DNA of 64,000 nt, taken from positions 1 through 64,000 of the IMG/VR virus record IMGVR_UViG_3300009506_000012; one strand, written 5' to 3'. Both the position numbers and the translations under genes were made by a program. The notes below the pieces were generated by a model that saw only the letters and a list, made by a program, of their open reading frames with translations, ran no database searches and was not told the origin of the DNA. This DNA comes from a virus. This document shows, one piece after another, positions 9,120 to 50,600 of the stretch (position 1 is the first letter of the stretch; each line of letters opens with the position of its first letter).

Positions 9120-9369
9120 AATCTTTATCGGTCACATTTACATACCAAAAAGATTTCTTTCGATTGGATACCTGTTTTTTCAGTGCATCTGTTACCGGCG
9201 TCAACAAGAACACGCTTCGATCCTCGTTATACAAAAGAGCCTTAAACTCTGAAGGTTTCTTAGCGTTCTTGATTTCTACCGGAAGTAATACTTTCAAGAT
9301 TATTCTGGTAAATTTCATAGTCACTCTGCTTATCCCATATGCAACTTTTTCAGTATTTTTGCGCTCCAC
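9082..9369 (-). CDS. Hypothetical protein
   Basis: ORF in operon; start uncertain. Confidence 0.5.
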   Translation of the reverse strand: MERKNTEKVAYGISRVTMKFTRIILKVLLPVEIKNAKKPSEFKALLYNEDRSVFLLTPVTDALKKQVSNRKKSFWYVNVTDKDFDLVEEAPYQKW

Positions 9370-9379
9370 TTTGTGGAGC
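9363..9379. promoter_or_regulatory. GCTCCAC-N-GTGGAGC palindrome, copy 1 of 7
   Basis: GCTCCACTTTGTGGAGC overlapping a stop codon. Confidence 0.7.
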
Positions 9380-10515
9380 TATTTGTTTTTGAATAATAGT
9401 TCAGCGTCCTCGCCAAGTTCATCCATCATCATTTGTGCAGCTTGCGTTGCCAGTTCCATTGGTTCTCCAAAGTGCATTTCAACCAGTGAAGATAAAGCAT
9501 TCCCGATTGCAGTCATCATTTTTGTATCTGTACATGAGATCATGATGACACCACCATTTTTCAGATTGTACTGATATCCCAAAGCCTTTTCAGGTTCCGG
9601 AGCTGTCCGGGTTGCCTTACGCAGAGCTTCCTGAAAATTCTTTCGTGACAGTCCCTGGCTTGCCGGTTTTGCCATTTCGTCAAAGAATAAAGTCAAAGTA
9701 TCCTTTAATCCCGGAGTAAGCACCAAAACATCTTCCATGGCTTCCTCGAGGTGTAATCGTTCTTCTGGATCCTTGCATTCCTTGATTGCTTTTTCGATTT
9801 CTTTTTGCTTGGTCATATTGTCTTGTAGCAATTCACGGAGCTGAGGAATAGCATAACGGCTTTTTGCAAAGTTGACTGATATATCCAACATGCGTTCTCT
9901 TTGAAAACCATTGGCCTCCATTACGGGTATCAACCAGTCACACATAAAACTAATTTCACTGTGGTTCCCAGGTCTTTTTCCGACACCATCCCAATCTGAT
10001 TTTTTGGTTTCAAGAAATTCAGTAATCGTGTCTATTTCAAGAAAAGGAAGTAACCCGTTCTCTTTCAAATACATGACAAGATGTACTTGCACCGGTTCCA
10101 TGGCTTCTTGTATCCTGGTACTGATAACAAAAGCACTTTCTGCGGCACCGGCCAGCATTTTCGAACGAACATAATCGTCACGTTTGACAAGAGCAATCAG
10201 TTCATTTCGTTTTTCAGCTTTGACATATTCAAACACATCATCTAAAGGACTGATTTCTTTCCTGGCAGCTGCATCGGCCATTTCATCCAGCTGTTTCCAG
10301 AAATTCCTGGCAACCATATCTCTTGCTATTTGACCTTTTGGAGTTTTACTTGGGTCAAATAACCATTCAGGAGTTATGTTGGTTTCTAAAGGAATAATCG
10401 AGCTTTCTAGTTCTTTTTTAGTGGTGGGCAGTTTGTCACCCACGGCAGATGTATTCTGATTGGGTGTGTTTTTGGTAATCGCCATCCTTGATTGGGTTTC
10501 CAGTCTAACGTCCAT
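9379..10515 (-). CDS. Hypothetical helical protein
   Basis: 378-aa ORF. Confidence 0.7.
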   Translation of the reverse strand: MDVRLETQSRMAITKNTPNQNTSAVGDKLPTTKKELESSIIPLETNITPEWLFDPSKTPKGQIARDMVARNFWKQLDEMADAAARKEISPLDDVFEYVKAEKRNELIALVKRDDYVRSKMLAGAAESAFVISTRIQEAMEPVQVHLVMYLKENGLLPFLEIDTITEFLETKKSDWDGVGKRPGNHSEISFMCDWLIPVMEANGFQRERMLDISVNFAKSRYAIPQLRELLQDNMTKQKEIEKAIKECKDPEERLHLEEAMEDVLVLTPGLKDTLTLFFDEMAKPASQGLSRKNFQEALRKATRTAPEPEKALGYQYNLKNGGVIMISCTDTKMMTAIGNALSSLVEMHFGEPMELATQAAQMMMDELGEDAELLFKNK

Positions 10516-11018
10516 TGTTGAAATACCTCCATACTATAGATATCTGCTTTGCGACTTGTCGGTTTGTAGGGAAACGACTTCATACCTTCAGAAAAAGCCT
10601 GTTCTACGAATTGATTCCAGACTTGAATTGAAATCAGCCAGGCGTATCGATCCGGTATTTGCGTTCCAAGTGTAACGAAAACAAAAGATGCTACTCCACG
10701 ACCATAAAAGGACGTTAGAAAATCATTTTGTTTTTCAGTGAGATCAGTAAAAGGGATTCGGGTTTTTCCGGGTTTCCCTTTTACCTCTATCCAAACAGGG
10801 TAATGTTGGAAGAATGCAAGATAATCCACAATAGTCTCATCGAGGTCTTGTTGATCTCGATCTGTCATGAAAATACGACCTTTGCAAATTTGCTCATGAC
10901 CACATTCTTCACATTTTACTTTGTTGGTACAAATACGAACATCCGACCACTTGTGGATCCACCAATTATAGGAATTGGCCATAGTGACCAGTTCGCGTTC
11001 AGCTTGTTTGACGGCCAT
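10407..11018 (-). CDS. PD-(D/E)xK nuclease, RecU/VRR-NUC-like resolvase
   Basis: VDYLAF...WIEVKG...LTEKQNDFL; Cys cluster insert. Confidence 0.7.
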   Translation of the reverse strand: MAVKQAERELVTMANSYNWWIHKWSDVRICTNKVKCEECGHEQICKGRIFMTDRDQQDLDETIVDYLAFFQHYPVWIEVKGKPGKTRIPFTDLTEKQNDFLTSFYGRGVASFVFVTLGTQIPDRYAWLISIQVWNQFVEQAFSEGMKSFPYKPTSRKADIYSMEVFQQWTLDWKPNQGWRLPKTHPIRIHLPWVTNCPPLKKN

Positions 11019-11184
11019 ATTTTATCCAGTTTCTGATTCTTGCATAACGCCTGACTATATGCTTCTTGAACCACAATACTAATGGACTAGCAATACAGAC
11101 ATAGTGATAAACATCATCATTTTTTTGTACAATTCTTTCTCCTCCAAAAATTTCTTTTTTGCATTTTGGACATATCGGAGGCAT
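10999..11184 (-). CDS. Small zinc-finger protein
   Basis: CPKC...HYVC. Confidence 0.55.
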   Translation of the reverse strand: MPPICPKCKKEIFGGERIVQKNDDVYHYVCIASPLVLWFKKHIVRRYARIRNWIKYGRQTS

Positions 11185-11185
11185 T

Positions 11186-12055
11186 TTATATCACCTGCTT
11201 TAGCAATTCTCGAATTTCATCAAACACATCAATAGGCACTTGTACTGCCTTATTTTCAACGACATATGTTTTATCAAGCAATCTCAGTGCTTTCATGACG
11301 GGAGAATCAGCGACAAGTTGTTCATAATCGATCAGGATTTCAGGTTGACCGGCATCGTTGACCGCTTTTTCTACTGCTTTGTGTGAAGCCTGTTGAATTT
11401 CTGTAGTGCTGACACCTTCACCATCTTCCAGTTTTTTGATAATCGGTTTTTGTTGTTTATTGGGTAGGGCTGCAAGAAGTTCCATTCCGCGCTCAGTGAT
11501 CATTCCTTCTGCAAATGCAACATAAACCGCATCCGGAAGGCTCATAACCTTGACCAGTTTTCGAATAGTGCCAACACTGGTTTTGAATTTCCTGGCCACG
11601 GCCTTTTGAAAATCATCATTATGGATATCAGATTTCATGTCCTCCGCAGCACTCCGTATCGCTTCCATATCGGTCAAGATATTCGCGCTTCGAGTATTAT
11701 TCTCTGCAAAAGCAATCTCATGTGCATTTACATCGGTTGGCTTCAAATCCTCTCGAAGTAAAGCCGGCCATTTGACTTTATTGATATAGCGACCATGATA
11801 CTTGTGTTCCATTTCGGCCAATTTGCGTAAAGCCAGTAAGCGCCGGCGTCCCGCAAGAGGATAATAGAGCCCAGTTTTAGGATGAAAGCAAACCACAAAA
11901 CTTTGCAATACACCCTTTTCAGCAATTGAGAGAACCAGGCCCCGATCCGGAGGAGGAGCAACAATATATTTGTTTGGTACCATGTCATCGGCACAAATCC
12001 TGATGCTTTTCCCTTTTGGGTCTAGTTCCAATGGAAGTTGAAAGTTGTCATTCAT
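11186..12055 (-). CDS. ParB/Spo0J-like protein
   Basis: SIAEKGVLQ, AGRRRLLA arginine patch, AENNTR, downstream HTH. Confidence 0.8.
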   Translation of the reverse strand: MNDNFQLPLELDPKGKSIRICADDMVPNKYIVAPPPDRGLVLSIAEKGVLQSFVVCFHPKTGLYYPLAGRRRLLALRKLAEMEHKYHGRYINKVKWPALLREDLKPTDVNAHEIAFAENNTRSANILTDMEAIRSAAEDMKSDIHNDDFQKAVARKFKTSVGTIRKLVKVMSLPDAVYVAFAEGMITERGMELLAALPNKQQKPIIKKLEDGEGVSTTEIQQASHKAVEKAVNDAGQPEILIDYEQLVADSPVMKALRLLDKTYVVENKAVQVPIDVFDEIRELLKQVI

Positions 12056-12260
12056 TTTGTTTTTCTGGAAACATCAATTCGTTAATAGACAGATCGAATT
12101 GTTCTTCAAACCAATGCCAAATGGTTTCCCTGTGAGTTCCTACTGGAAAATGTAAGAATTCTTCTTCAATCTGTTCATCAGTATCAATGGGAATATCACC
12201 TAATTTTTCCCAAAGAATAGTTGCTGTTTTTCTTGTGAATTTCACAAAACTAAACGGCAT
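12048..12260 (-). CDS. Hypothetical protein
   Basis: 70-aa ORF, FLHFPVGTHRETIWHWFEE. Confidence 0.6.
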   Translation of the reverse strand: MPFSFVKFTRKTATILWEKLGDIPIDTDEQIEEEFLHFPVGTHRETIWHWFEEQFDLSINELMFPEKQNE

Positions 12261-12675
12261 ACTTTTTCTCCCAGGCTAAGAATTTATCAATCAATTCTTG
12301 ATATTCATCACCTTCAGTGGCACCACATTCCACACATTCTTGATGACCACCAATGTAAACAGTATGTGGCATTCCTGCAAATCCCTTTTTTTCTTCAGTG
12401 ACAGCGCCTATCAATTCTGTCTGTCCATGACATACTGGACAATTACCCATTTCCCATAGATCCAAGTCAATTGTGATGTAGGATAATTGACGATTGTACT
12501 TATCAGTTATATCATCCACACATCCAAGGCTTATAAAACAGAATACAGATTCCCCAGCAACTAGTCCGGTTGCCTTTTCATCTCGGTGTGGTTCCTTTGG
12601 AAATGTAACAATCGCAGCCGGAATAAGAGTGGCCAGGCCTTTCAGAAAATCACGGCGTGATACTTTATTGCTCAT
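12250..12675 (-). CDS. Twin-arginine-signal protein with zinc ribbon
   Basis: SRRDFLK at N-terminus; CPVC...CVEC. Confidence 0.65.
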   Translation of the reverse strand: MSNKVSRRDFLKGLATLIPAAIVTFPKEPHRDEKATGLVAGESVFCFISLGCVDDITDKYNRQLSYITIDLDLWEMGNCPVCHGQTELIGAVTEEKKGFAGMPHTVYIGGHQECVECGATEGDEYQELIDKFLAWEKKYAV

Positions 12676-13446
12676 TTAGTAAATTTCCTTATCAATATCG
12701 ATTACCTGAGTAGTAAAGCCAGCTTTCTTCATCGCATCCAGTACCTTTTCAAGTTCATCTGATACCTTTTTGTCTTTGGTCATTGTACCCATGAAACCTT
12801 TCAGTGGCAGCCACATGAATGCCCCAAAATCGAATTTGGGTTCTTTGTCCAGAACTGGTTCACAAGTGTATGAGAATGATGGGCGTATTCGTCCATATCC
12901 AGATTCTGAATTTACACATTCACTGATAGGAATTTCACTCCACCACATCGCAGAACAGGTATCTCGAAAACCCTCATCAAATGGCTTTGGATGTTTGCTC
13001 ACTGGACGAAGGCACTTACGATGGTTATGATTTACCTGCCCCAGAACAAGACCAATATCCTGCAAAGCGCCAGCATCCGTACACAGATAGTGACGTGATA
13101 CTCCTGGAGTCAGTTTATCAATTGGGGTATTGGTTGGCCACCGGCGTGAAATCCCGAACCGCTTGGCTTCTTCAAAGAAATCAGTTTTATACGGATAGTG
13201 CTTACGACCAATGATATCGAACACATCATAAATAGGCCGGCCATCCGGATCCGTCATGTGCTTGCCCTCTGACATCCTGGGAACAATATTCATTCCTTGT
13301 GATGACAAATGGAATGCACTCTTATCAATTGTCCAGACCGGACAAATTACAAATTGCTCAATTGGGATTCCATCTCTGGAAACTCCCCATTCAATATACA
13401 TGGCATCATAAGCCATGGATCCGCAACCTCTACCGGTTGTTTTCAT
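12676..13446 (-). CDS. Hypothetical protein
   Basis: 256-aa ORF. Confidence 0.7.
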   Translation of the reverse strand: MKTTGRGCGSMAYDAMYIEWGVSRDGIPIEQFVICPVWTIDKSAFHLSSQGMNIVPRMSEGKHMTDPDGRPIYDVFDIIGRKHYPYKTDFFEEAKRFGISRRWPTNTPIDKLTPGVSRHYLCTDAGALQDIGLVLGQVNHNHRKCLRPVSKHPKPFDEGFRDTCSAMWWSEIPISECVNSESGYGRIRPSFSYTCEPVLDKEPKFDFGAFMWLPLKGFMGTMTKDKKVSDELEKVLDAMKKAGFTTQVIDIDKEIY

Positions 13447-13790
13447 GAATTTTCAAGCACCCATTCAATCATTTTCTGAACCCATTTGTCAAAAACACTG
13501 TTGAATTTCACCAGGTTGGCGATTGGGGTTGCTTCAGAATTGGCTTTTGTGCGCAGTTCAGGCATCCAAGGCACACGAATAACATCATCGTGATCTAATA
13601 ACCAATAACGGCAATAAGCAACCTGCTGTTTCCAGTTGACTGCCATCACAAAACCAGGTTGCAATCCATTCGGATATTTCCAGTTTTTAGGCTTTCTGTA
13701 ATTCAGTTCTGCCAAATGATCAGGAATATAAACAATCTGATCACCACGTTCAAGCGTTTGAATTTCATCCATTGTAATAGAGTCCTTCAA
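13443..13790 (-). CDS. Hypothetical protein
   Basis: 115-aa ORF. Confidence 0.6.
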   Translation of the reverse strand: MKDSITMDEIQTLERGDQIVYIPDHLAELNYRKPKNWKYPNGLQPGFVMAVNWKQQVAYCRYWLLDHDDVIRVPWMPELRTKANSEATPIANLVKFNSVFDKWVQKMIEWVLENS

Positions 13791-14127
13791 TCAGTTCAGG
13801 AGGAATGTAGCTCTTTGCAGTTTCAGAATACAACTTATCCCCAAATTGCGATATGGCTTCAATGGCCAAGGAAATCGGCATATTCAACGGGACAAGTCCC
13901 CAATACGCTGAATAGTCATCTCCGTATCCAATTGACAAAATCACAATCTGATAAAAGGCTTTTTCACTGGGATTTTCAGTTATGATTCTTTTGGTATTGT
14001 CATACCAGCCTGAAACATCCCGGAAAACCTTCATCTGTTGATCGATGCGGGGTGTAAATTCTTTGCAGTATACAATTAGCTTGGTTCCCGGAGGGGGAAC
14101 GCGAATAACATTGTTGTCACTTGTCAC
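13765..14127 (-). CDS. Hypothetical protein
   Basis: 120-aa ORF, AAGGA SD. Confidence 0.6.
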   Translation of the reverse strand: MTSDNNVIRVPPPGTKLIVYCKEFTPRIDQQMKVFRDVSGWYDNTKRIITENPSEKAFYQIVILSIGYGDDYSAYWGLVPLNMPISLAIEAISQFGDKLYSETAKSYIPPELIEGLYYNG

Positions 14128-14142
14128 TTTGTCATCCTTTTT

Positions 14143-14158
14143 GCTCCACTAGTGGAGC
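14143..14158. promoter_or_regulatory. GCTCCAC-N-GTGGAGC palindrome, copy 2
   Basis: GCTCCACTAGTGGAGC between promoter and SD. Confidence 0.7.
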
Positions 14159-14167
14159 GCCTATATC

Positions 14168-14196
14168 AATATACTACCACTCAGTAGTATTGTCAA
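14168..14196 (-). promoter_or_regulatory. sigma70-type promoter with palindromic spacer
   Basis: TTGACA-17 bp-TATATT; spacer contains TACCAC-TCA-GTAGTA. Confidence 0.8.
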
Positions 14197-14944
14197 GAGG
14201 TTCATTATTATCTTTCAGAATAGTATATCTATCAGTATAACCAGGTGAAAGTTCAACTTCAACCATATCAATCAAATCCCAAGGATGAATCATGATCGGT
14301 TTAGCTTGATATCTACCATAATCACCTTCTTCCATCCAACCTGATGTAAGAGGCATATATCTTTTGGCTAAATAAACAGTTTGATGAAATCCAGGATCCA
14401 GGCCACCGGGCTCATAATCATATTCCTCACCCCAATCACCATAAGAATATCCTGAAGATGGAGGAAACCATTTTCCAGTCATGTAACGTTTTGTGTCTAC
14501 AAGTTCTATCAAAACATCTTTATGATAGGGAAAACGGTTACCAATATCACGAAACCAGAATCGCCGCCATTCAGCATCTTCGCCCACCTCTCTGCGTTTC
14601 TTGGTAGTTAGGCTTCCACGTGCTTTATATTCAGGTAGCGGATATCCGGATTTCGACATTTCAGCCACTAGTCTTTTGGCAATCTGACCGGACTTTCCAG
14701 GGTCCTTGTCAAAATAAAACGGCAATATACCCAGAAAAGAATCATATAGCAGTTTCTTGGCTTCTTCAATAACCTCATCAGGCATATGTAATTTAGGTTC
14801 AAACATATAGCCAACACGATGAATATATCGTTTGACCAACCAAAAAGTACCTAACCAGTCCTTACGTGTTTTGACACTGGTACAGTCTCTTTCGCGAATG
14901 AAATAACTCGTATCGTTTTCGACTTTCGAAAAAGTAATAGTCAT
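14174..14944 (-). CDS. Hypothetical protein
   Basis: Start moved to ATG 14944 (ATGA overlap with upstream stop). Confidence 0.65.
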   Translation of the reverse strand: MTITFSKVENDTSYFIRERDCTSVKTRKDWLGTFWLVKRYIHRVGYMFEPKLHMPDEVIEEAKKLLYDSFLGILPFYFDKDPGKSGQIAKRLVAEMSKSGYPLPEYKARGSLTTKKRREVGEDAEWRRFWFRDIGNRFPYHKDVLIELVDTKRYMTGKWFPPSSGYSYGDWGEEYDYEPGGLDPGFHQTVYLAKRYMPLTSGWMEEGDYGRYQAKPIMIHPWDLIDMVEVELSPGYTDRYTILKDNNEPLDNTTEW

Positions 14945-15540
14945 TTCCAGCTCTCCGGTATTTTTCCTTGATACAAACGATCTCCACAGGGATAAGCATA
15001 AACACAACGCCCAACCTGTTTTACTGTTTCAATCTTTCGTTTACAGTGAAAACAATAATCTACTTTGTGTTCATGAAAAGCCCAGGACCATTCTACATAT
15101 TCTTTTACAAGATCATCTGCATCTTTGTTTGTTTCTGTGTATCCAGTTTCTTGTTTATAATCAGTTACAACTTCAATAACTCGATGACATTCATCTTCAG
15201 TCATTTGGGAAATGTGTGTATTTTCAACTTCAGTACCCAAGAGTGTAGCCAATAAACGATAAGCAGCCTTACGACTCATGTTCTTGTTTTCTTTCCACAG
15301 AACATCAAAGGTATTATGTGCTTTGATTCTTAATTGTCGTAATTCTGCATTAGCCATATCTCCCAGGGGTTTTCCATTTGGATGTGATCCTACTCGATAA
15401 TCACAATCATATTCAGGACATTTCCATACAGTGCGCCCGGACCATGAACCATCTTTCCCATAGAAAACATTCGCTGAGATAGGTATTGCGGGTACGTGAT
15501 GAACAGGGCATAGCGGAGGTGTTATGGTATCATCTGACAT
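14941..15540 (-). CDS. DUF3268-like zinc-finger protein
   Basis: CPVH...CPEYDCDYRVGSHPNGKPLGDMANAELRQLRIKAHNTFD...AYRLLA; start moved to 15540. Confidence 0.75.
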   Translation of the reverse strand: MSDDTITPPLCPVHHVPAIPISANVFYGKDGSWSGRTVWKCPEYDCDYRVGSHPNGKPLGDMANAELRQLRIKAHNTFDVLWKENKNMSRKAAYRLLATLLGTEVENTHISQMTEDECHRVIEVVTDYKQETGYTETNKDADDLVKEYVEWSWAFHEHKVDYCFHCKRKIETVKQVGRCVYAYPCGDRLYQGKIPESWK

Positions 15541-16198
15541 TATGCCTAACCTTTCAGAATCAACAGAAGCTGGCCGCGTTCTACAGGCTTTAATTGCGCT
15601 CCAAAAGTTCGTCCGAGGTGCAACTAAAGCTGAAGCCTGTGAAGAAGCCGGTATCAGTGTTTGGCAATTCGAACATTGGATCGGGGAAGGTGGCCCCGTC
15701 ATTGAGAAGTTCCAAGAGACTCTCGTTGAGCAAGAGAGAGTCAGGATGGTTCAAATCTCCAGCGCTCAAGGGATCATCTTGAATCAGCTCATTAAGGCAG
15801 CTACAGCAGGTGCCTGGGTTGAAACAGTTGAAGTCAACGGGGAAACCAGGGATGTTATCATTTATCGGGATGTTAAGCCCGGTGATCAGCTCAAGATCCT
15901 CAAGTATCTGGATGGACTCCGCGCAGAACTTGAGAGCAAATACGGTGTCAAGGCCGAATCCGATGCAGCCGGGGATTATCTGACCGGACCCAAAACCCAA
16001 ATCGAACAGTCTAAAATGCTTGAACAACATGAAATGTCTCGTTCCAGTGTGAACGTGAAGCCACAGAACGATGGTTCCGTGGACATCACGTTCAAAAAAC
16101 TAATGGACCCGATTGACGTTACGCCTACAGCTGGATCGAACCAGTCCCCAGAAGTTTCTGACCCAGAGTCTCAGACAGAAGATTCTCCTGAAGATTGA
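15524..16198 (+). CDS. N-terminal HTH protein, candidate terminase small subunit
   Basis: GGAGGT SD; TKAEACEEAGISVWQFEHW HTH then long helices; only clear plus-strand gene in left arm. Confidence 0.5.
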   Translation: MVSSDIMPNLSESTEAGRVLQALIALQKFVRGATKAEACEEAGISVWQFEHWIGEGGPVIEKFQETLVEQERVRMVQISSAQGIILNQLIKAATAGAWVETVEVNGETRDVIIYRDVKPGDQLKILKYLDGLRAELESKYGVKAESDAAGDYLTGPKTQIEQSKMLEQHEMSRSSVNVKPQNDGSVDITFKKLMDPIDVTPTAGSNQSPEVSDPESQTEDSPED

Positions 16199-16742
16199 GG
16201 TTTGTTTCCGAACTGCCACCTGAAGCATTGGCCAGCTGCCGCATGAACTTGATCGCATCTGCATCTTCTGGACCAATGTAAATCGTATCAATCTTGGTCT
16301 TAAACAGTTTTGCAAGTCCCAAAATCTCAGTCTCCTGACCATAATCAGGACTCCCATCCGATAGCAAAGCAATCTTCACACCCAAGTCATCCACTCCTTG
16401 ATGGTAAATATGCTTAAGTGCATTCAGCATATCCGTGTTCCCGAAATAAGGTGTAGGAATTCCGCTTGGACACCACTCGCATAAACCGGAAAACGAAAAT
16501 ACTGCTACTTTGCCTTCGAAGCGCTTCATCAACTTCTCAAGCTCAACCAGCAACCGTTCGTAACGAGTATCACCACCCAGTTTATCTGACATATCCATTG
16601 ACCCGGATGTATCACAAAGTGTGACCATATCCACATTCATCCAGGTTTCAGCCAGGGAAGTCTGGTTGCGCTGTGCCATATCTGCCTGGCTGCCAACCAG
16701 TGCATTCCCAGTACGTTTTGCTAATTTATTATTTCGTGCCAT
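16125..16742 (-). CDS. von Willebrand factor A domain protein
   Basis: MIDAS DTSGS, GNTDM, LLSDG; start moved to 16742. Confidence 0.85.
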   Translation of the reverse strand: MARNNKLAKRTGNALVGSQADMAQRNQTSLAETWMNVDMVTLCDTSGSMDMSDKLGGDTRYERLLVELEKLMKRFEGKVAVFSFSGLCEWCPSGIPTPYFGNTDMLNALKHIYHQGVDDLGVKIALLSDGSPDYGQETEILGLAKLFKTKIDTIYIGPEDADAIKFMRQLANASGGSSETNLNLQENLLSETLGQKLLGTGSIQL

Positions 16743-16914
16743 TGTTTTCCTCATAATATTCAATGTGCAGTACATATCGATCCGGATACACACGGGGAAT
16801 CAGTTTATGAATAACGATTTCACCTGCATTGGATTTATTGATGTACTCTCCGGATTTTTGTTCAAGTTCCTCTTGAGTTCTACAGGTGATATTCTCAACT
16901 TTTAGTTTACTCAT
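16729..16914 (-). CDS. Hypothetical protein
   Basis: 61-aa ORF between J-domain and vWA genes. Confidence 0.55.
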   Translation of the reverse strand: MSKLKVENITCRTQEELEQKSGEYINKSNAGEIVIHKLIPRVYPDRYVLHIEYYEENNGTK

Positions 16915-16919
16915 AGCGT

Positions 16920-17795: not shown

Positions 17796-17814
17796 AGAAT
17801 TACCTGCTTTCAGT

Positions 17815-17836
17815 GGGGGAGGGATATCCCTCCCCC
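17815..17836. terminator. Perfect 22-bp palindrome after ssb
   Basis: GGGGGAGGGATATCCCTCCCCC; no clear U-tract. Confidence 0.5.
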
Positions 17837-17854
17837 GATAGTTCAGTTGTTATC

Positions 17855-18654: not shown

Positions 18655-18686
18655 TTACTAATCCATGGTATCAGTATTTGGATGCT

Positions 18687-18704
18687 TGCTCCACTAGTGG
18701 AGCA
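18687..18704. promoter_or_regulatory. GCTCCAC-N-GTGGAGC palindrome, copy 3
   Basis: TGCTCCACTAGTGGAGCA, intergenic. Confidence 0.7.
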
Positions 18705-18741
18705 GAGGTTCCCTATGGATAACTATGTATTTCAGGCTTTT

Positions 18742-18760
18742 ATTATACTACGATGTGGTA
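18742..18760 (-). promoter_or_regulatory. -10 hexamer overlapped by TACYAC-N3-GTRGTA palindrome
   Basis: Minus strand TACCAC-ATC-GTAGTATAAT; no good -35. Confidence 0.5.
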
Positions 18761-20786: not shown

Positions 20787-20803
20787 GCTCCACATTGTGG
20801 AGC
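20787..20803. promoter_or_regulatory. GCTCCAC-N-GTGGAGC palindrome, copy 4
   Basis: GCTCCACATTGTGGAGC right after a stop and before an AAGGA SD on minus strand. Confidence 0.7.
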
Positions 20804-23691: not shown

Positions 23692-23706
23692 CTCCACATG
23701 GTGGAG
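23692..23706. promoter_or_regulatory. CTCCAC-N-GTGGAG palindrome, copy 5
   Basis: CTCCACATGGTGGAG between promoter and SD. Confidence 0.65.
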
Positions 23707-23751: not shown

Positions 23752-23780
23752 GTTATACTCTAACTACTACCAGTTGTCAA
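23752..23780 (-). promoter_or_regulatory. sigma70-type promoter
   Basis: TTGACA-17 bp-TATAAC. Confidence 0.75.
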
Positions 23781-38556: not shown

Positions 38557-38577
38557 GCGCATGATCCTCCTTCTGTT

Positions 38578-38609
38578 GGCCTGGGTGGGTTCCACGACCT
38601 GCCCAGGTC
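38578..38609 (+). terminator. Hairpin after tail tube gene
   Basis: GGCCTGGGTGGGTT-CCAC-GACCTGCCCAGGTC; no U-tract. Confidence 0.45.
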
Positions 38610-38640
38610 GACCACATCACACAAACAGGAATACAACAAT

Positions 38641-42813: not shown

Positions 42814-42814
42814 T

Positions 42815-42831
42815 GCTCCACATTGTGGAGC
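42815..42831. promoter_or_regulatory. GCTCCAC-N-GTGGAGC palindrome, copy 6
   Basis: GCTCCACATTGTGGAGC just after a stop codon. Confidence 0.7.
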
Positions 42832-42839
42832 TGATTAGC

Positions 42840-43907
42840 ATGAGCGCCTACAATCCTCCAAGACTTGTTTCCAAAGCATACGATAGACCTGTTGACATAC
42901 TGGCTACCAGGCCGCATTTTGTTGACCATATCGCTCCTGTATGGAGGCACCTAGAAAATCGAGGTGGCTTTTATGTTCCTGAAGTATTGTTAGATTATGC
43001 TAAAACCAAAGTACCTGAAGCCGTAGGGGTAAAGCCAGTTGGCAGAAGCGATAAGCTGAATATCAGGCCTCCCGAAAAAAATGTGTACTTTACCTGCGCT
43101 TATGGGGATTTAGAGAAAGGCATGATTACTGACCTGAAACGGGTTTTTATCTTTATGGAACACGGAGTCGGGTTAGTGTTTCCGGGAAATCCTCACTATG
43201 CCGGGAGTGTTGGCCTTCGAAGGCGTGTTCATTTCTTTCTTGCGCCAAATCAGAATATTCATGATAAGACCTGGACCACTTTTCCAGAAGCACCGCAAGC
43301 TATTGTTGGCACCCCAAAGATGGATAATGTTCCAACAGATATGCCGATCAACCGGGATGACCCGTTGATTATTATCTCATTTCACTGGGATGGAAGGAAG
43401 GTGGCCAGGGAAGCGGCGAACGCATATCCACATTTCAGAGAGATTCTTCCGGAAATTGCAAAACGATATCACTTGGCCGGCCATGCTCATCCACGTATCG
43501 CAAACTACTTCGAAAGAGTGTATAATGAATTAGGCATTGAGTTCATTCGTGATTTTGATGAAGTCATGCGCAGAGGGGACCTTTATCTAAATGATGCCAG
43601 TTCAACAGCATATGAATTCGGCGTCACTGGGAAACCAGTCATCTTACTTAACTCGCCCGGTTACCGGCGTAACATAAATTTTGGAATCCGATTTTGGCAA
43701 TACACAGATTGGGCTATTCAGGTTGATGAACCTGGCCAGCTCATTTCTGCTATAGAACAAACACTACATAAACCCTCACATGAACAGAAACAGAAACAGA
43801 TGGTAGCAGACCTCTACCCGTACCATGGGCAGAGTGCAAAGCGTGCTGCTGATCAAATAAACAGATTTCTGAACATGCGAGGAACCAATGCCATACAAGA
43901 TACCTGA
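42840..43907 (+). CDS. TagF-like CDP-polyol phosphotransferase / GT-B transferase
   Basis: MEHG, VGTPKMD, HAHP, DLYLNDASSTAYEFGVTGKPVI parallel TagF motifs; start 42813 or 42840. Confidence 0.75.
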   Translation: MSAYNPPRLVSKAYDRPVDILATRPHFVDHIAPVWRHLENRGGFYVPEVLLDYAKTKVPEAVGVKPVGRSDKLNIRPPEKNVYFTCAYGDLEKGMITDLKRVFIFMEHGVGLVFPGNPHYAGSVGLRRRVHFFLAPNQNIHDKTWTTFPEAPQAIVGTPKMDNVPTDMPINRDDPLIIISFHWDGRKVAREAANAYPHFREILPEIAKRYHLAGHAHPRIANYFERVYNELGIEFIRDFDEVMRRGDLYLNDASSTAYEFGVTGKPVILLNSPGYRRNINFGIRFWQYTDWAIQVDEPGQLISAIEQTLHKPSHEQKQKQMVADLYPYHGQSAKRAADQINRFLNMRGTNAIQDT

Positions 43908-44673: not shown

Positions 44674-47600
44674 ATGCCCTACACGGTTCCAAATCCTACA
44701 ACCGATCAATTCAGGACTTATCTTGAAAACCTTCTGAAAACATTTGATAAAACCTATCAGGTTCAATATGTGCCTCCACAGAAGGATGCCGGCAATAGCG
44801 ATATTGAAGGAACGGATTTTTTCAACATCACAAAAAAATCCTCCAACAATGCTGGTGTTCTCAAGACTAACCTCAAGATAAACTTGGGACATGAGTCTCG
44901 TTTTAGAACGACCTACGGTGGACAGACTCCCCAGCAATTTGAACGTGCCCCGGAAATCCTAACGGGTTCCGGGCAAAGTGCTTATACCGTTGGTGGCTCC
45001 TGGGCTTCAGTGGCCACGGTTGTCGATCAGCCTGGCGGGAAATCTGATATTGATATCAGGCATGATTTGCGCTCTCCAATAGAAAGCCTGGCCACTTTGA
45101 TCAGCACTGGTTTTTCAGATGTCGAAAAAGAAAACCGGTTCAATCCCGGAGCTGTTACGGGTGATGTAACCAGCAAGATTATGAATCTGCTATCCACAGG
45201 TTCCAGTGAACACAGTGATTTTGCGGTCCCTGCCGGCGCTTTGATGACAACAACTGGAATTGATGTAGATGCTGTTCGCAGAAAAGCCGCTCAAGCCATT
45301 CAGCTCGTAAATAGCTACGACCCTACTGGCACCGCAGAGGTAGGGCAGTTTGCACAACGAGAGGCGATAGCCAAGGCGCGTGAAAACATGATGCGTCTTA
45401 GCATTCCTGTACCTGGCCGGGGAGGAAAGCCAATTGATTCCTTTTTCAAAGAAGCTGGGTATGCTCCCGATCGCGCACAGGCTGACCGCCTTGTCGCATT
45501 ATCACAGGCTTCTCGGGTTGTCCGTGATGCTCTTGGTCAGCCAACAGATACTGAAATCTATCTGCCTTCTCCGAAGATAGCCAAACACATGACTATTTTG
45601 AGTTCTGGTCGTCAACAAGCATCTTTACTTGGTGAAGATTATCAACCTATTGCGCCAAAGATGATCACAGGACGTGTACCAACATCCGGATACAGAATGA
45701 CAACCGCTGATGTTGGAGGCAGAATTCCTGAAAAGTCTCTAGTGCTTGGAACAATGTTTTCGCCTCAATATCCTATTCCGGGTGCAGGAATGTATTTTCC
45801 GGAAACTGTAGATGCCAATGTGAAATCAGGTGGCTACAAGGCTACTCAAAGTTTTGGAGTAACTCGGAATGTCAAGGATCTTCTTACCGATAAAACCCAG
45901 CTTAATTTACAGCAACAAACCGGAAATGTAATCCCATCTTCTCTGAATTATGACGTTTTCTCAATGCGTACTAAAGAGATGAAAAAGTCTGATCCGGATA
46001 TTATGTTACAGCAACGAGCAGGCACACATTCTTTTGCCGTTGGAAATCAGCAATTGCGTATTCCCAGATATTACACGGCTGAAGGAATCGGAGCCAGCTA
46101 CGATAAGCAGATGCTTCGCAAGAAACAACTTCAAGAGGTGACCCCGGCAGAGATTGAAGCACTTTCAAAACGCCTGGGCGTGAATGTTGTTCCAGACGCA
46201 ACCATTGAAGAAGTCCTCTTAGAGATGGAAGGCCAAAAACTAGTTGGTGGCAAGTTTGCCATTGAGGGTGTCAAATCAGATATCACCCCTTATACCGGCA
46301 CTCCAACTTTTTCAGCTGGTGGCAAGGAAAGAGCCATCAGCGCAGTAACCTGGGAATCCAAGCAAATGCTGGAAACCTTTACAGGTAGCCTTGGGGCTAT
46401 TTCTCCTACAGCCCAATATGGAATCCTGAATGAATATCAAAAATCGCTTACGGCTTCAGGGGATACGGATATGGCCGCGAACGTTCGTGCCGTCATCAAA
46501 CAGCAAAAGGCATTGAGGAGAGAGGATCCTACAGCCAGGCTTGATCTTCAAGCAGCTGCAAATCAAATAGCAGGAACTGCAACGGATGCACCTGTACATG
46601 GATTGTCCAGAGATATCTTTCAGCGTGTATTTCTGGGAGGCTCTAAGGTACAAGATTTTGCAGGTATGAATGAGGCAGACCTATCTGCGTTTGCCCAATC
46701 TGATCTGAATGTTCGCAATCTGAAAAAATTCGGTATGGGATGGGTATCTCCCGAAATGAGCAATCCCATAACAACCATGTGGGACAGAAGCCAGGTCGAG
46801 GCTTTGTTCACTGGATACCGTCAGGGAAGTAATGTACCTGAAGCTGAATTACGTGCGCGGTTTGGGCGTCAATATGGTTTTGATTTTTCAAATGCAAAAG
46901 GTGACCAGATTGCACAGACGTTCAGGCCTAGTGGGTTTTACATGCCAGCGATTGCCGGTCCATCTGTGGAGTTTTCCGGAGGCGGCACACTTGGTTCCGA
47001 AGAAACGCAAATCCTTTCAGCGATTGCACCAGGCTTTGCAAACCGTCTGGGCGCTAATGCAGAAGGACTGACCCGGCGTGATCCTGTGCGTTGGGCTCAA
47101 CGTCAGATCGCACATATCGCCGCTACTGAAATGGATCGGGGCGAGGGTAAGTACACCAAGATTGATAATGCGCTTCAGATTGGCACAGAACAGGCGACCA
47201 AAATGTGGGCAGATCCGGAGTTTCGTGCCTTGCTTGGAGATGAGGCCGGTGATTTAGCTGGAATGAAACGCTTTGAAGAAAAGCTGAAAAGTTTCTTTCC
47301 GGGCTCAGAGGATTTGAACCGCAGGCCTATTACCTTTGAAGCTGCCCCAGGTCGTTACCTTCCATCAACCAGGGCAATTTCTGCTTTAGCTACTGAAAGT
47401 TCGGCAACTATGCGAGGCGGCATAAGAACAGGTGAGGATGTTACACGTTCTTGGAATATGTTCCAGAGCGCTTTTTCCCAGGCTGTCACTTCGCAGATCA
47501 ACGAGGACCCGACTGGTTTGCTTGAGGGTACCCAGAATCTAACATCGCATTTTATGAGACAGTTTGGCCTCCCTGAAGGCGGCAAGCGTGATGTTATCAA

Positions 47601-50600
47601 GAAAATGATGGGAAGCGAAATCGGTGTTGCTTCAGGTCACTATGCTTTCTGGAATGAACTTAAACAAAACGAGGTTTATGCCAGTAAAGAGAAATACATG
47701 GAAGCAATCCGTAAAGAGCTTTCAGCCCAGGGACTTGATACCCCCGAACGACCATTATCCAATCAAGAAGTAGAACAGGTCTACAACATGATTGCAGGTC
47801 TGCCTTCAGAGGTTGGAACTGCGCCTAATGATGTGCGAACCAAAGGGTTACCCGGTGTGGTGGCTCGCTGGCCTATTGTAGCCGGTGAGGAATCCATGCT
47901 GGGAATGCGCTTTGTCACCCCGGAGCATCTACAGCGTTCGGGCCGGCAGGCACCTGTTGAGGCCGGTATGGGAAACCTTCACTGGCGAATCGGTGTTGGG
48001 CCGTCCAGTATTATGCAGGGTGACTTCGATCTTGACTACATGCTTGGTTTGATGGGGCTGACCGGAACAAGAGATGAAAGTGGCAAGCTGGATGTGAGTT
48101 TCGCAGCCTATAATAGAAACGGCAGGCTCGGAAAAGATATAAGTGCGCTTGTCAATCGAACACAGCAAATGAGCTATGAGACTATTCAGAGGATCCTTTA
48201 TCCATCTAAAAATGCTCAACAGCAATTCGACCCAATTTTCCAGGCATTCCAGGATAGAGATAAAACAGGTACGCTTGGGCCAATGCAACAAGTGGCAAGA
48301 AATCTGATTGGCGAACAGTTTGGAAAATCAGGCTGGCAGCCTTACGGCCATCTGTTAGACAGCGTGGCTACATATGGGGGAGCCAAAATGATGATGGGTA
48401 CTTCTTATAACTTCACTCGTGCGCTCGAAGCAGCAGCCGGTGTAGGCGGCTGGTCAACTGAGGGAATCATGCAGGGACGTAGAGGCAGGGCACAGATCTA
48501 TCAACCTCACCTTGATCTTCAGACATCCCAGGCTGCACCGATGGTTCGTATGTATCAGTCATCCTTCTTGGCCGAGGGCAAGGGTGGCAAACTGGGATTG
48601 GGCTTTGGTACCGATGTGGCTGGGTATGGATTGCAGTTCATGAAAAATGCCGGCAAGATCATGAATCTGAGCGAGGATAATACCAGTCGCATTATTACCA
48701 TGCTGGCAGGTAGTGCCATTACTCCTACAACAGCCGGTGAGCTTCCATCTCCGGAAATGCTTGGGTATGCTTTCTCTCCGGAAGAAGGTAGGGTAAATAC
48801 TGCTCCTGAAGATATGCAGACTTCACTGGACCTGTTCACAAAATGGAAAAATGCAGAACGCCACCCAGAGAATGCTGCCGAATACAATAAACGCGCAGAT
48901 TACGAGGAGGCTTACATGAGAACAACCGGCCTCGCTGACGTACTTCAGGCACCCTATAACATGGAGGGCACCACAGATGAAAGAGCTACTGCCATGCAAC
49001 ACACTCTTTCCCAGTGGATGAAATATAACTATTACGGCACGAAAGAAGGCCGTGAAACAGCCTTGCAGGGCAACTTCATTACAGCCATGTTCTCGAAGTC
49101 TTATGCAAAGAAACAGGAAAAGGAACCAGGATGGACACCTCCACTCGACTTCAGGACTTCGAAACTCGGTTCACGGATGATGGGCAAAGCCAATATCCAG
49201 GCACCTCTTTTCAATATGATGAAAGGCGGTTTATCTTCCGGACGCACCTTGCGCCGTCTGCTGAACTCCATAGGACAGACATCCGGTCTGACAAGTTGGG
49301 CAACCGGCAATCTTCAGGCTCTTGGTTTTGGAACGGACGAGACTATCTTCCCGCAATCACAGGTATCCGCTTCGGGTAACGTGCGATCTACCGGGCCGAA
49401 CGGTGAACCGATTATCGTCAGTCCAGAAATGGAACGTCTATGGGCTAAAGACTGGGCACGTATGAAAAACAAAGGTCTCTACGAGGGCAACTTTGGTCAA
49501 TACATAGAAGAACGCAAGGCAGACCTGGCTAGGCTAAACACATCTTTTGCAGGAAAGCCTGTGGATCAAGCAAGAGTAAATCCGGAAACAAAAGACATCG
49601 AAGGTGGCTTCGAGAATATTCCCATGGTGGATTTCGATGCCATCAATAATGCACAACCAGAACCAGAACAAACGCAAACTACTACTACACAACCCGAACA
49701 AACTACTGCAAAACCACAACAAAAAACGCCAAAACCACAACAGCCCAGTAGTACCCAAAAACCGCAACCTGGTGGTACACAGCCTCCCAATAAACAACCA
49801 CCCGGAGGAGGAACGTCTACTCCAGTAAGCCCCACCACCCCACCCTCTGGTACTCCCCCACCCAGAGCGCCGCAGGATGCTTCTCAGAACACCAAGTTTC
49901 CTGGTCTACCTGCCAACAGTATTCCGACTGAACAGGCACAAGAGTACATCGGCAAGTTTAGAGAGTACATGCCAAATATCACACAAGCAGCTGGCGCAAT
50001 TCAGTCAGAACTTGGCGCTATTACTGGGGCAACCCCTGGACCAATGGGTGTGTACGAAGCTATGGCGCAACTTCCTGAAGAACAGCGCATGGAAATCCTG
50101 AAAAAGTATCAGGAACCGGCGCGTCAGGCTCAGGAGCTGATGGGACTTGCGAAAAAGGTTTATCCAAATCTTGAGAAGAACGTGATCGACCCGGCTGTAC
50201 TCAGGCAGTTCGGTATGTCCGGAGCTGATCTGCGCATCATGTCTGAAGATACTCTGCTCACCAACAATCCAGTTGGGCAGAACCTGGTTGACCTTGGTGG
50301 TCTGACGGGTGTTCCGGGGTTTGAAACCTTGAAAAAGCGTGGAGGTACCACAGCCGCATCCGGTCAGGTTAGTGCAAATATTGCTCAGATCCATTTCCAG
50401 GAATTGGGCGAAATTACAAAGAAGCTAACTGAGAATTTTGAGAACCTATCAAAAGGTCAAATCAAACATAGCGATGCCCTGAAGGAAGAAACCAAACTCC
50501 TTGAACAGCGTGAACAGGCCAGGCAAAAACAAGCGTTATCAGAGAAAGCTGCTCCACTAGTGGAGCAAGGCTTACTCGAGCCTGAAATCACGGCCACCAA

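Follow-up and report, generated by a model that had tools for sequence, protein, structure and literature searches.

A genome-specific palindrome dispersed through an uncultured siphophage, with equivalents in its relatives, as a possible recognition site for a lineage-specific factor

The window analyzed here comprises 64,000 nucleotides (positions 1 to 64,000 of IMG/VR record IMGVR_UViG_3300009506_000012) of an uncultured siphophage, G000, whose record of 82,163 bases corresponds to a circular length of about 81,952 bp; G- and L-numbers label this phage and its relatives. As in the Thermus phage P23-45, a giant tape-measure-like protein is encoded, here by a plus-strand ORF of 3011 aa (44674..53709) with an invariant GDxDxD motif (GDFDLD, aa 1116-1121). 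The original prediction described seven dispersed GCTCCAC-N2/3-GTGGAGC palindromes, mostly at gene junctions, and all seven are present, six of them perfect and the one at 23692 with 6-bp arms. Three abut stop codons, as proposed: GCTCCAC-TTT-GTGGAGC at 9363..9379 overlaps by 1 nt the TAG of a minus-strand 378-aa ORF (9379-10515) and is followed on the plus strand by TATTTGTTTT; GCTCCAC-ATT-GTGGAGC at 20787..20803 lies, on the minus strand, right after the TAG of ORF 20804-20950 and directly 5' of AAAGGAATAAAACTATG; and GCTCCAC-ATT-GTGGAGC at 42815..42831 lies, on the plus strand, 1 nt past the TAA of a 726-aa ORF and at the start of a 364-aa ORF that has an in-frame ATG at 42840, 9 nt past GGAG. 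Three others lie downstream of a -10 box: GCTCCAC-TA-GTGGAGC at 14143..14158 is 11 nt downstream of a minus-strand sigma70-like promoter (TTGACA-N17-TATATT, 14168..14196, 11/12 matches) and is followed on that strand by AAAAAGGA and the GTG start of ORF 13765-14127; GCTCCAC-TA-GTGGAGC at 18688..18703, in the gap 18655-18747 upstream of ORF 18274-18654 and the SSB gene, is 38 nt after a TATAAT that lacks a good -35; and CTCCAC-ATG-GTGGAG at 23692..23706 is 46 nt downstream of a second minus-strand promoter (TTGACA-N17-TATAAC, 23752..23780, 11/12 matches), with AAAGGAAATCAAGTG next on the minus strand. AAAGGA and a start codon come immediately after the 14143, 20787 and 23692 palindromes, which agrees with the proposal that several copies directly precede a Shine-Dalgarno sequence. 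The seventh copy, GCTCCAC-TA-GTGGAGC at 50551..50566, is within the 3011-aa ORF and encodes AAPLVE. Beyond the window, copies at 67299 (6-bp arms, within a 958-aa ORF), 72514 (in a convergent gap, with a T-run after it on the plus strand) and 81525 (within a 263-aa ORF) bring the complete ~82-kb genome to ten.

This repetition is not random. The window holds six perfect GCTCCAC-N2/3-GTGGAGC elements against 0.00 in 100 dinucleotide shuffles, or seven against a shuffle mean of 0.02 when the copy with 6-bp arms is included, and the palindrome is both the most repeated word of at least 10 bases in the G000 genome and its sole strongly repeated one. Gene boundaries account for seven of the ten copies (P=7e-4) and ORF interiors for three, and the spacer is 2-3 nt. 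Eight of the ten GCTCCAC heptamers genome-wide belong to palindromes, and the 16 lone hexamer half-sites outside them, where models of different Markov order predict 22-36, represent neither enrichment nor clear depletion in G000. The hairpin alone is stable (-9.4 to -10.9 kcal/mol) and, when folded within its sense contexts, forms part of the minimum-energy structure in 10 of 11; most copies have no U-tract, and only two or three of the ten have a promoter.

Of the 11 sigma70-like sites that score highest (at least 11 of 12 matches) in G000, G001, G007 and L162, six have a palindrome within 50 nt. Its position relative to the promoter varies, being downstream, just upstream of the -35 or in the spacer, as at 40540 in G007, where the palindrome fills the spacer of a 12/12-match promoter; such variable geometry is what repressor operators would show, and shared intergenic space may be a partial cause of the association. 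G000 and G001 have two promoter regions in synteny (G000 14143 with G001 10086, and G000 23692 with G001 17046), and each bears its own genome's palindrome. Copies within ORFs (50551 in G000 and 11740 in G007) lie in conserved peptides without indels. At 50551, homologues conserve the AAPLVE peptide, whose Leu is encoded by CTA, the rarest codon for that residue (7.3% of Leu codons); the joint codon probability is about 4e-4. The within-ORF copies are maintained through rare codon choices.

Comparison with other genomes revealed that every distinct relative with at least 20 kb of sequence (11 of 11) carries its own equivalent dispersed dyad element, in 3-23 copies against at most 0.085 in shuffles; conservation in relatives, a point raised by the original prediction, is thus evident as the motif itself or an equivalent. 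The elements are CTCCAC-N3 in G002 and G003 (six and five copies), TTCAGA-N5 in G001 (eight), CTCAGA-N2-4 in G006 and G007 (10 and 11), TTCGGC-N2 in G010 (20), AGAAC-N2 in G011 (22) and TTTCC-N4 in G004 (23), to which are added five copies in L162, four in G008 and the CTCTAGCGCTAGAG type in G009 (three perfect, about seven with variants). Arms of these equivalents span 5-7 bp across the phage group; core arms are never mutated, centres are variable and degenerate copies are few, a pattern of protein-read half-sites rather than of loop-read RNA hairpins. Spacer length varies within four genomes (G000, 2-3; G006/7, 2-4; L162, 3-4; G008, 0-1). The argument that constant arms and a variable centre speak against a rigid dimer is reinforced by the CTCAGA-N2/N3/N4-TCTGAG element, which occurs with three spacer lengths inside one genome. 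An outer YTC...GAR is common to seven motif classes while the inner bases vary, and the capsid identities agree with one change of class, from CTCCAC to TCAGA; these two observations are consistent with co-evolution with one inherited reader. CTCCAC arms are common to relatives of 42-55% G+C that have unrelated early genes and probably different hosts. Copies deep within ORFs make up 8 of 11 in G007 and 15 of 20 in G010, which equals random expectation and indicates that the element does not depend on gene boundaries.

Because each relative has its own arm sequence, the palindromes are probably sites for a phage-specific factor rather than ordinary terminators, and our preferred, still tentative, interpretation is that they are DNA-level recognition sites for a putative lineage-specific factor. 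An unlikely but credible alternative is that the element acts in cis as an mRNA hairpin, located in 5'UTRs and intercistronic regions, that protects transcript ends, attenuates read-through or modulates ribosome access, where a hairpin-specific RNA-binding protein or nuclease may read the 6-7-bp stem. Loop-length variation would be natural for such a hairpin, and its strength in G000 together with the seven boundary copies leaves room for an RNA role in that genome. The order stop codon, palindrome, AAAGGA, start is repeated in G000, G010, G011 and G002; the GTGGAG(G) arm itself serves as the Shine-Dalgarno sequence of the chaperone gene in G002, L010 and L182, where relatives without the motif have ATGGAG at the same position; and flanking bases lengthen the stem after the tube gene to 15 bp in L162 and 9 bp in G007, which suggests selection for folding there. 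However, fixed stems with free loops are the opposite of most RNA-protein recognition, hairpins of the other motif classes are weaker (-4.8 to -6.7 kcal/mol), motif variants show no excess of G-U wobble, and a purely structural role leaves the sequence identity between copies unaccounted for. The operon-end copies at 72514 in G000 and 29524 in G003, just ahead of a true terminator, have no downstream gene to regulate, and the deep-ORF majority in G007 and G010, found in both orientations at places where a signal for processing or termination would be harmful, argues against RNA processing or translational control, one of the originally proposed functions, as the primary role. Quite improbably, the copies could instead be attenuator hairpins in promoter/terminator/Shine-Dalgarno cassettes that need no dedicated binder, resembling T4-type PeSLs, stem-loops described upstream of, within or downstream of sigma70-like early promoters, between a stop codon and the next Shine-Dalgarno sequence, that terminate transcription and mediate recombination (PMC2839356, PMC4122927); recombination among copies and co-infecting relatives would keep them identical, and they would act as crossover points for module shuffling. 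Common to both systems, as far as those accounts describe PeSLs, are the succession of stop, sigma70-like early promoter, stem-loop (variably placed relative to -35 and -10), Shine-Dalgarno and start, and the recurrence in early regions (PMC2839356, PMC4122927). The 42815 copy lies in a block of five genes inserted between the tube and chaperone genes, which in G002 and G003 are neighbours; this position and the T-run after 72514 also fit this explanation. PeSLs as described are conserved over ~100 bp and have polyG/polyC stems, whereas conservation here is limited to a 14-17-bp palindrome, most copies lack a promoter and a U-tract, and many are within ORFs; the codon-maintained, indel-free ORF copies and the sharing of arms by relatives that span 42-55% G+C and differ entirely in their early genes would be left without explanation.

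A candidate domain for a virion RNA polymerase lies in the 3011-aa ORF and is among the possible readers of the motif. It is distinctly unlikely that the sites are promoter, pause or termination signals for this domain, read as short DNA hairpins in the manner of N4 promoters; in that role they might assist in pulling in or transcribing the genome on entry. One G-DxDxD motif occurs at ~aa 900-1300 in all ten giant ORFs examined, GDxDxD is invariant across 11 aligned homologues, and the domain is the sole nucleic-acid enzyme in the conserved core common to all these phages, to which may be added that G000 has no strongly repeated word other than the palindrome. The best 50 Foldseek rows, all weak, are nearly all largest subunits of RNA polymerases, including those of AR9 and PhiKZ. 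The fold support is nevertheless weak (pLDDT 60.7; best polymerase Z 4.8; no Foldseek match at E<=1e-3), and neither a sequence match to solved structures nor sequence-level homology to P23-45 gp96 was detected. A virion polymerase fused to the tape measure is proven in P23-45, where 14 start sites are preceded by a strongly conserved promoter word and where the hairpin terminators, likewise conserved, adjoin the next promoter (PMC10770324). Like G000, P23-45 has a single DxDxD motif in a giant tape-measure ORF and many repeats of short, highly conserved words, but its promoter word (…TTATTCCTTTA) is a linear sequence whose copies cluster in an end region of 9 kb, and T-runs are present in the P23-45 terminators (PMC10770324). 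In G000 the sites are genome-wide, in early and late regions alike, and also within ORFs, near-consensus host-type promoters lie beside several of them, and a transcript starting downstream of the hairpin would lose the abutting Shine-Dalgarno sequence. Stems of N4 early promoters range from 5 to 7 bp. They are described as hairpins in which a 3-base loop caps a stem no longer than 7 bp, whose bases are read via the major groove (PMC4496689), and the likeness to G000 lies in short DNA hairpins in which stem sequence matters (6-7 bp here) and in apparent polymerase injection by both phages. N4, however, has three promoters at one genome end, a fixed start site, conserved loop bases (-11 purine, -10G) and a T7-like polymerase (PMC4496689), whereas G000 has ten dispersed copies with free loops and a DxDxD-type domain fused to the tape measure. 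None of 49 ORFs matches the N4 vRNAP family, by which an N4-like phage was rejected, and the suggestion of N4-type promoters was not borne out. It is very improbable that the palindromes are paired inverted half-sites, each read alone by a spacing-tolerant host or phage enzyme, which would be, for example, a host end-processing nuclease recognizing a Chi-like signal in both orientations or a nuclease dimerising across the half-sites. This would account for invariant arms, free spacer length and sequence, gene independence, the absence of any phage protein that co-varies with the motif and a class switch with host, and GTGGAGG may resemble G-rich Chi-type words. Independent half-sites need no adjacency, though, and lone half-sites are not enriched; the same CTCCAC arms span 42-55% G+C and probably different hosts, and arms such as TTTCC and AGAAC are unlike known Chi words.

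The interpretation as DNA-level recognition sites has a close parallel in the Cluster O mycobacteriophages (Corndog), in which TGTTCGG-N3-CCGAACA occurs 34 times, roughly one third of the copies lying within ORFs, and for which a dimeric DNA-binding protein is predicted to act on the 17-bp repeats (PMC4351075). As far as that account describes the repeats, the two systems share the 7+3+7 architecture with invariant arms and a variable central trinucleotide, a dispersed distribution that is denser in non-structural regions, a fraction of about one third within ORFs (3/10 here) and a lack of orientation relative to transcription (PMC4351075). They differ in arm sequence, in copy number (10 here), in spacer length (2 or 3 here and 2-4 in relatives) and in belonging to unrelated hosts and phage lineages; the sequence class changes among relatives here but not among the five near-identical Cluster O genomes of that account. 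A candidate binder in G000 only is a minus-strand ParB-like protein (11186..12055) with an AGRRRLLAL box and an HTH-like segment, which occurs only in G000 and G001 and is missing from the complete genome G010. Pfam identified no HTH regulator among 103 G000 ORFs, no early proteins common to G000 and G002 were detectable despite the same motif, and our searches found no motif binder.

Cluster A stoperators, RK2 KorB operators and phage P1 C1 operators are dispersed operators of global regulators; each replicon of 50-95 kb carries from ten to thirty-odd sites that are almost identical and occupy short gaps between genes, either close to promoters or far from them, and their specificity co-evolves with the binder. 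The sites in G000 resemble these in number per replicon, in their short gaps and in being placed near or far from promoters, but asymmetry and a set orientation characterize stoperators and C1 operators, spacing is fixed in KorB and ParB sites, and G000 has no identified repressor gene. The original interpretation is thus partly supported, since of the options it offered operators, as putative protein-bound DNA sites, fit best, and N4-like polymerase signals and RNA-processing or translational sites fit less well. The analysis shows that the element is non-random, occurs family-wide, has invariant arms with free centres, is under selection within ORFs and is associated with promoters; we infer that a protein binds these sites, acts on DNA and affects transcription. 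The window's seven sites would then be part of a ten-copy, genome-specific, dyad-symmetric "signature" element whose invariant arms are bound genome-wide by a sequence-specific, lineage-specific and probably phage-encoded factor, which, given the spacer variation in some genomes, would be a flexibly linked dimer or a reader of extruded DNA hairpins. Sites would accumulate wherever a constant word of 14-17 bp can be accommodated, namely past stop codons, before ribosome-binding sites and beside sigma70-type early promoters, and would be retained in long genes through codon choice. Such sites would be like the operators of a global regulator or transcription roadblock, as with Cluster A stoperators, KorB operators and the Cluster O repeats.

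Six matches to GCTCCAC-N1-5-GTGGAGC were found in the window, against none in 100 dinucleotide shuffles, and seven palindromes with 6-bp arms against a shuffle mean of 0.02; all seven positions of the original prediction (9363, 14143, 18688, 20787, 23692, 42815 and 50551) were confirmed. The record is 82,163 bases long, the window being its first 64 kb, and is a complete genome, because its final ~200 bases repeat its start and an independent 81,952-base contig spans it circularly. Ten palindromes are present in total, the three outside the window lying at 67299 (6-bp arms), 72514 and 81525. The palindrome is the top repeated word of at least ten bases in the genome, and eight of the ten GCTCCAC heptamers sit in palindromes. 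A test for half-site avoidance was not significant, and the idea that the sites are paired independent half-sites is very unlikely. The predicted pairing of constant arms with a centre of varying length was borne out, four copies having N2 and six N3 centres (TTT, TA, ATT, ATG and CTT were seen). Only the seventh, outer pair varies, being unpaired mainly at ORF-internal copies; no one-mismatch variants of the 6-bp arms occur in this genome, and the ten copies share no flank beyond the palindrome plus a few bases. Three DNA runs contained the same strain at low depth, with zero variation at the palindrome sites, which is uninformative. Rfam gave no matches to the window, our literature search found no description of this element or this phage group, and a scan of viral contigs for CCTCCAC-N3-GTGGAGG returned, among the matches listed, mostly single and unrelated occurrences.

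In coding-strand orientation, 9363 shares one base with a TAG stop, 20787 lies immediately 3′ of a TAG and immediately 5′ of AAAGGAATAAAACTATG, and 42815 begins 1 nt past a TAA, in agreement with the prediction that three copies abut a stop codon; 72514 lies 4 nt past a TAA and has a canonical terminator right after it. Three further copies had been placed ~10-45 nt past a -10 box, which also held: 14143 is 11 nt downstream of TTGACA-N17-TATATT (11/12), 23692 is 46 nt downstream of TTGACA-N17-TATAAC (11/12), and 18688 is 38 nt downstream of a TATAAT without a good -35. The copies at 50551, 67299 and 81525 are ORF-internal. Seven of ten copies are not deep within an ORF, against 19% expected (P=7e-4; crude ORF set), although all counts of copies inside ORFs are approximate since the ORF sets are greedy longest-ORF calls. 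The ten copies spread across 9-81 kb, three of them in the late region.

Minus-strand genes extend from ~27 kb down through position 0 and onward to 72.5 kb, and plus-strand genes occupy 27-72.5 kb. The minus block encodes ArdC-like, RecU-like, ParB-like, SSB and DnaJ-domain proteins, a DNA methylase, RNase H, a DnaB-like helicase and its loader; the plus block encodes portal, capsid, adaptor and tube proteins, two chaperone-like proteins, a 3011-aa ORF and large tail proteins. The early arm at 5233-19847, with its ArdC-like, ParB-like, SSB, DnaJ-domain and DNA methylase genes, recalls the leading regions of conjugative plasmids, and no integrase was seen. The tube and chaperone genes, adjacent in the relatives G002 and G003, are here separated by an insertion of five genes at 38557-43907, three of them ORFs of 231, 726 and 364 aa and two encoding methyltransferase-like proteins; the 364-aa and methyltransferase-like genes also occur in the overlapping contigs G006/G007. 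A 15-bp palindrome, GTTCCAAAATGGAAC, is present three times (once mismatched) within 70 bp at 6956-7024 (0.2 in shuffles), upstream of a 546-aa ORF of no known family (7210-8850); it looks like an operator or origin cluster separate from the dispersed motif. The region 508-597 contains a perfect sigma70-like promoter, TTGACA-N17-TATAAT (12/12, minus strand, 569-597); after it come direct repeats of ATTTTGAT(A/G)TCACGAC, two or three in number, which look like iterons or an operator. A TTGACA-N17-TACAAT promoter (11/12, plus strand) at 32350-32378 lies just upstream of the portal gene, so host-type promoters may also serve the late region.

Relatives were found by capsid-based scans of IMG/VR and metagenomes and are metagenomic contigs, most of them incomplete; a search via the SSB found none. 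CTCCAC-N3-GTGGAG is also found in distant relatives whose capsids share 52-59% identity with that of this phage, in six copies in G002, five in G003 (G005 and L166 are copies of the same phage) and two each in L010 and L182; most of these copies have C-G, not G-C, as their outer pair. In the closest relatives (capsid identity 72-77%) the CTCCAC motif is missing and a different one takes its place: TTCAGA-N5-TCTGAA in G001 (8 copies), CTCAGA-N3/4-TCTGAG in L162 (5 copies) and CTCAGA-N2/3/4-TCTGAG in G006 and G007 (10 and 11 copies). CTCCAC palindromes were absent from all ten further IMG/VR relatives, each long one having its own family: TTCGGC-N2-GCCGAA in the complete, 90-kb G010 (20 copies), AGAAC-N2-GTTCT in G011 (22 copies), TTTCC-N4-GGAAA in G004 (23 copies), TTCCAAC-N0/1-GTTGGAA in G008 (4 copies) and a CTCTAGCGCTAGAG type in G009 (3 perfect and ~7 variant copies). 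Shuffles of the relatives' genomes gave at most 0.085 copies per genome. The original prediction had named conservation in relatives as one test, and a dispersed dyad of this kind is thus present in 11 of 11 distinct phages of at least 20 kb, each with its own. Among 30 metagenome loci, most shorter than 10 kb, a family of at least two copies was found in only five, and none of five IMG/VR loci of 10-21 kb has a family of at least three copies; such loci are mostly uninformative, being too short to weigh against the pattern. Seven motif classes have a common outer YTC...GAR and differ in their inner bases, and the capsid identities fit a single change of class, in the clade that is sister to this phage, by which CTCCAC gave way to TCAGA.

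The geometry of the element and its placement also differ among genomes. The spacer is variable within this genome (2-3), G006/G007 (2-4), L162 (3-4) and G008 (0-1), and fixed in G001, G002, G003, G004, G009, G010 and G011. Preference for gene boundaries is strong here, in G011 (11/17, P=2.5e-5) and in L162 (4/5), and is absent in G007 and G010, where 8 of 11 and 15 of 20 copies, respectively, lie deep in ORFs. Spacing tends towards regularity in G010 (CV 0.61, P=0.018) and G011 (CV 0.55, P=0.010), and not significantly so in this phage (P=0.16) or in four other genomes; this is no more than a weak hint. The central base of the N3 copies is T on the plus strand in six of six here and G in five of six in G002, a strand consistency that was not found in G001, G007 or G010 and that may come from common descent. 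Two of these genomes have other features of note. At ~23.7-32 kb of its record, G004 (L038) has many repeats of the tRNA T-arm-like words GGATTTGAACC and GGAATTGAACC, which suggest a large tRNA gene cluster, and one of its palindromes lies immediately after a tRNA-like 3′ end. G010 encodes a PARP catalytic-domain protein and an RNA ligase (L236 12969-14225; L233 3505-4206), together with ribonucleotide reductase, ThyX, a dCTP deaminase-like protein and two T5orf172 (GIY-YIG-like) proteins.

The ORF-internal copies bear on the level at which the element is maintained. The copy at 50551 encodes AAPLVE, which is conserved among tape-measure homologues with no indel, and does so using CTA, 7.3% of Leu codons, with a joint codon probability of ~4e-4. 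The ORF-internal copy at 11740 in G007 behaves in the same way, also with no indel against homologues. By such codon usage, the ORF-internal copies are selected at the nucleotide level. A third copy, at 16731 in G007, coincides with a two-codon length difference against homologues; two copies without an indel and one with this difference are not enough to support mobile insertion. Unlike REP/RAYT elements, the copies here carry no GTAG or CGTC head, and the 103 ORFs of this genome contain no Y1 transposase by Pfam. Ten distinct genomes, with G006/G007 taken as a single phage, contain the giant tape-measure-like ORF in full, and in seven of them it holds at least one copy.

We tentatively read the palindromes as DNA-level sites whose arms are recognized by a lineage-specific reader. 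The arms are invariant and the centres free, codons within ORFs are chosen to preserve the site in either orientation, and placement in G007 and G010 is independent of genes, which together point to a reader that acts on DNA and does not rely on gene boundaries. Such sites resemble stoperators and KorB or C1 operators. To our knowledge, short dispersed palindromes have been noted in a few phage groups, including the Cluster O mycobacteriophages, and have never been explained. The Cluster O repeats likewise have two invariant ~7-bp inverted arms, a short variable centre and many dispersed copies, although their spacer is fixed at 3 bp and four of our ten copies have a 2-bp centre. Recognition as DNA agrees with the proposal made for these architecturally identical repeats, for which a dimeric DNA-binding protein is predicted in the Cluster O report (PMC4351075). 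The main difficulty of the DNA-site reading is the variable spacer, because of which the reader must be a flexible dimer or recognize an extruded hairpin.

The search for a reader protein among the genes of this phage and its relatives yielded no candidate. The ParB-like protein at 11186-12055 matches PHROG 4715 (E=1.3e-10) and has an AGRRRLLAL box. Its only homologue among nine relatives (phmmer) is in G001, and none of the 90 ORFs scanned of 118 listed in the complete G010 has a ParB match in Pfam; ParB was thus rejected as a general binder. Nor do the sites have the fixed length of parS or KorB palindromes, their spacers being 2 or 3 in this phage and 2-4 in G006/G007. Pfam found no HTH regulator in the 103 ORFs, and no early protein shared with G002 was detectable, though the motif is common to both. 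Autoregulation by the small gene that opens the promoter-proximal operon (13765-14127 here) was rejected: its homologue in G010 is likewise preceded by G010's own palindrome, but G007 and G001 have unrelated genes at the corresponding place.

A primary function as an RNA hairpin is unlikely, although the hairpin will, in a trivial sense, form in transcripts. As RNA, it forms part of the minimum-energy fold of 10 of 11 contexts, and the isolated palindrome folds with -9.4 to -10.9 kcal/mol, as a 6-7-bp stem with a 3-nt loop in six of ten copies and as 6 bp with a 4-nt loop in the four N2 copies. The stem and not the loop is conserved, and the majority of the copies in G007 and G010 are ORF-internal. 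One-mismatch variants across genomes show no excess of G-U wobble and comprise about as many transitions as transversions, which is uninformative. The sense strand 3′ of the sites is A-rich or carries a Shine–Dalgarno (SD) sequence; T-runs come only after 9363, where the run is antisense to the genes, and after 72514, both on the plus strand. Most copies are therefore not intrinsic (rho-independent) terminators, for which a GC stem with a U-tract on the transcribed strand is expected. An RNA role may well matter locally, as a terminator at 72514 and in SD sequestration after the tube gene. A palindrome lies right after this gene in G002, G003, L010 and L182, its GTGGAG arm replacing the ATGGAG SD of motif-free relatives; flanks at this site lengthen the stem to 15 bp in L162 and 9 bp in G007, and the CTCTAC-ACA-GTAGAA of L184/L185 is a possible compensatory variant. 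Of the 11 strongest sigma70-like sites in this phage, G001, G007 and L162, six have a palindrome within 50 nt: downstream of the promoter here, 4-7 nt upstream of the -35 in G001 (twice), L162 and G007, and filling the spacer of a 12/12 promoter at 40540 in G007. Two of these promoter regions are syntenic between this phage and G001, each with its own genome's palindrome. This promoter-proximal subset matches PeSL modules, a sigma70-like promoter and stem-loop between stop and SD, whose variable geometry resembles that across our relatives (PMC2839356). PeSL-like modules are nevertheless quite unlikely as a general account: an 11/12 promoter lies within 50 nt of only two of ten copies (18688 having a -10 only), the PeSL cassette is conserved over ~100 bp while the flanks here share nearly nothing and conservation spans 14-17 bp only, and the ORF-internal copies would be unexplained.

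It had also been suggested that the palindromes serve a phage RNA polymerase in the manner of the N4 virion enzyme. This did not stand in that form: none of 49 ORFs, the giant ORF included, matches a PHROG or Pfam polymerase family, a DxDxD motif being found instead, and an N4-like phage was rejected, there also being no DNA match in the phage collection. The N4 promoter is described as a hairpin with a 7-bp stem and a 3-base loop (PMC4496689), and six of the ten copies here share the short stem and 3-base loop. The N4 loop bases are conserved (-11 purine, -10G) with a fixed start downstream, whereas here loops vary and an SD lies downstream; N4 promoters are few and clustered at the first-entering end, upstream of early genes, whereas the ten copies here are dispersed. 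The giant ORF (44674-53709, 3011 aa) occupies the tape-measure position and contains GDFDLD at aa 1116-1121; beyond this motif are a Pro/Thr-rich linker (~aa 1650-1745) and then a Gln/Gly/Met-rich C-terminal half. GDxDxD is invariant across 11 aligned homologues, and each of ten giant ORFs examined has one such motif. A predicted model of the polymerase-like region (pLDDT 60.7) gave no Foldseek match at E<=1e-3 (best E=0.03), although nearly all of the best 50, weak, rows are largest subunits of RNA polymerases; the best polymerase Z was 4.8, with Z at most 5.8 in a wide VIA search, and the ORF had no sequence match among solved structures. In the Thermus phage P23-45, a virion RNA polymerase is located at the start of the tape measure (PMC10770324). 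The giant ORF matches this case and is probably an RNA polymerase fused to the tape measure as in P23-45, here in a mesophilic phage of marine sediment, although the fold evidence is weak. A domain profile found no second polymerase-like protein; this profile missed the giant ORFs of G008-G011 and is thus insensitive.

That the palindromes are signals for this polymerase-like domain is a rather slim prospect. The domain is the sole nucleic-acid enzyme in the shared core, and strongly conserved promoter and terminator words are described for P23-45 (PMC10770324). However, the P23-45 signals lie together in a short pre-early stretch at one genome end and ours are genome-wide, loops are free, host-type promoters adjoin the sites and an SD directly abuts the hairpin. 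Slimmer still is the chance that they are DNA-hairpin signals for a tape-measure-fused RNA polymerase of the two-barrel type. Once injected, this enzyme would read the stem sequence of hairpins extruded from the entering or supercoiled genome, and would start, or pause and restart, at sites every few kilobases, thereby coupling early transcription to genome entry; polymerase and arms would co-evolve to give each lineage its own arms. If true, this would be the first hairpin-promoter system to use an enzyme other than the T7-like one of N4, and in mesophilic phages the first promoter code of a two-barrel-type tape-measure-fused polymerase.

The dispersed palindrome is a family trait of uncultured long-tailed phages with a polymerase-like tape measure. 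Its natural specificity variants (CTCCAC, CTCAGA, TTCAGA, TTCGGC, AGAAC and TTTCC) are material for finding the reader by co-variation and for testing it by arm swaps. A reader protein, if one is found, would define a new genome-wide phage recognition system, as a global regulator, roadblock or set of polymerase signals, and would yield DNA words with their binders as orthogonal pairs; failing such a find, the elements still flag cistron boundaries and early promoters for annotation.
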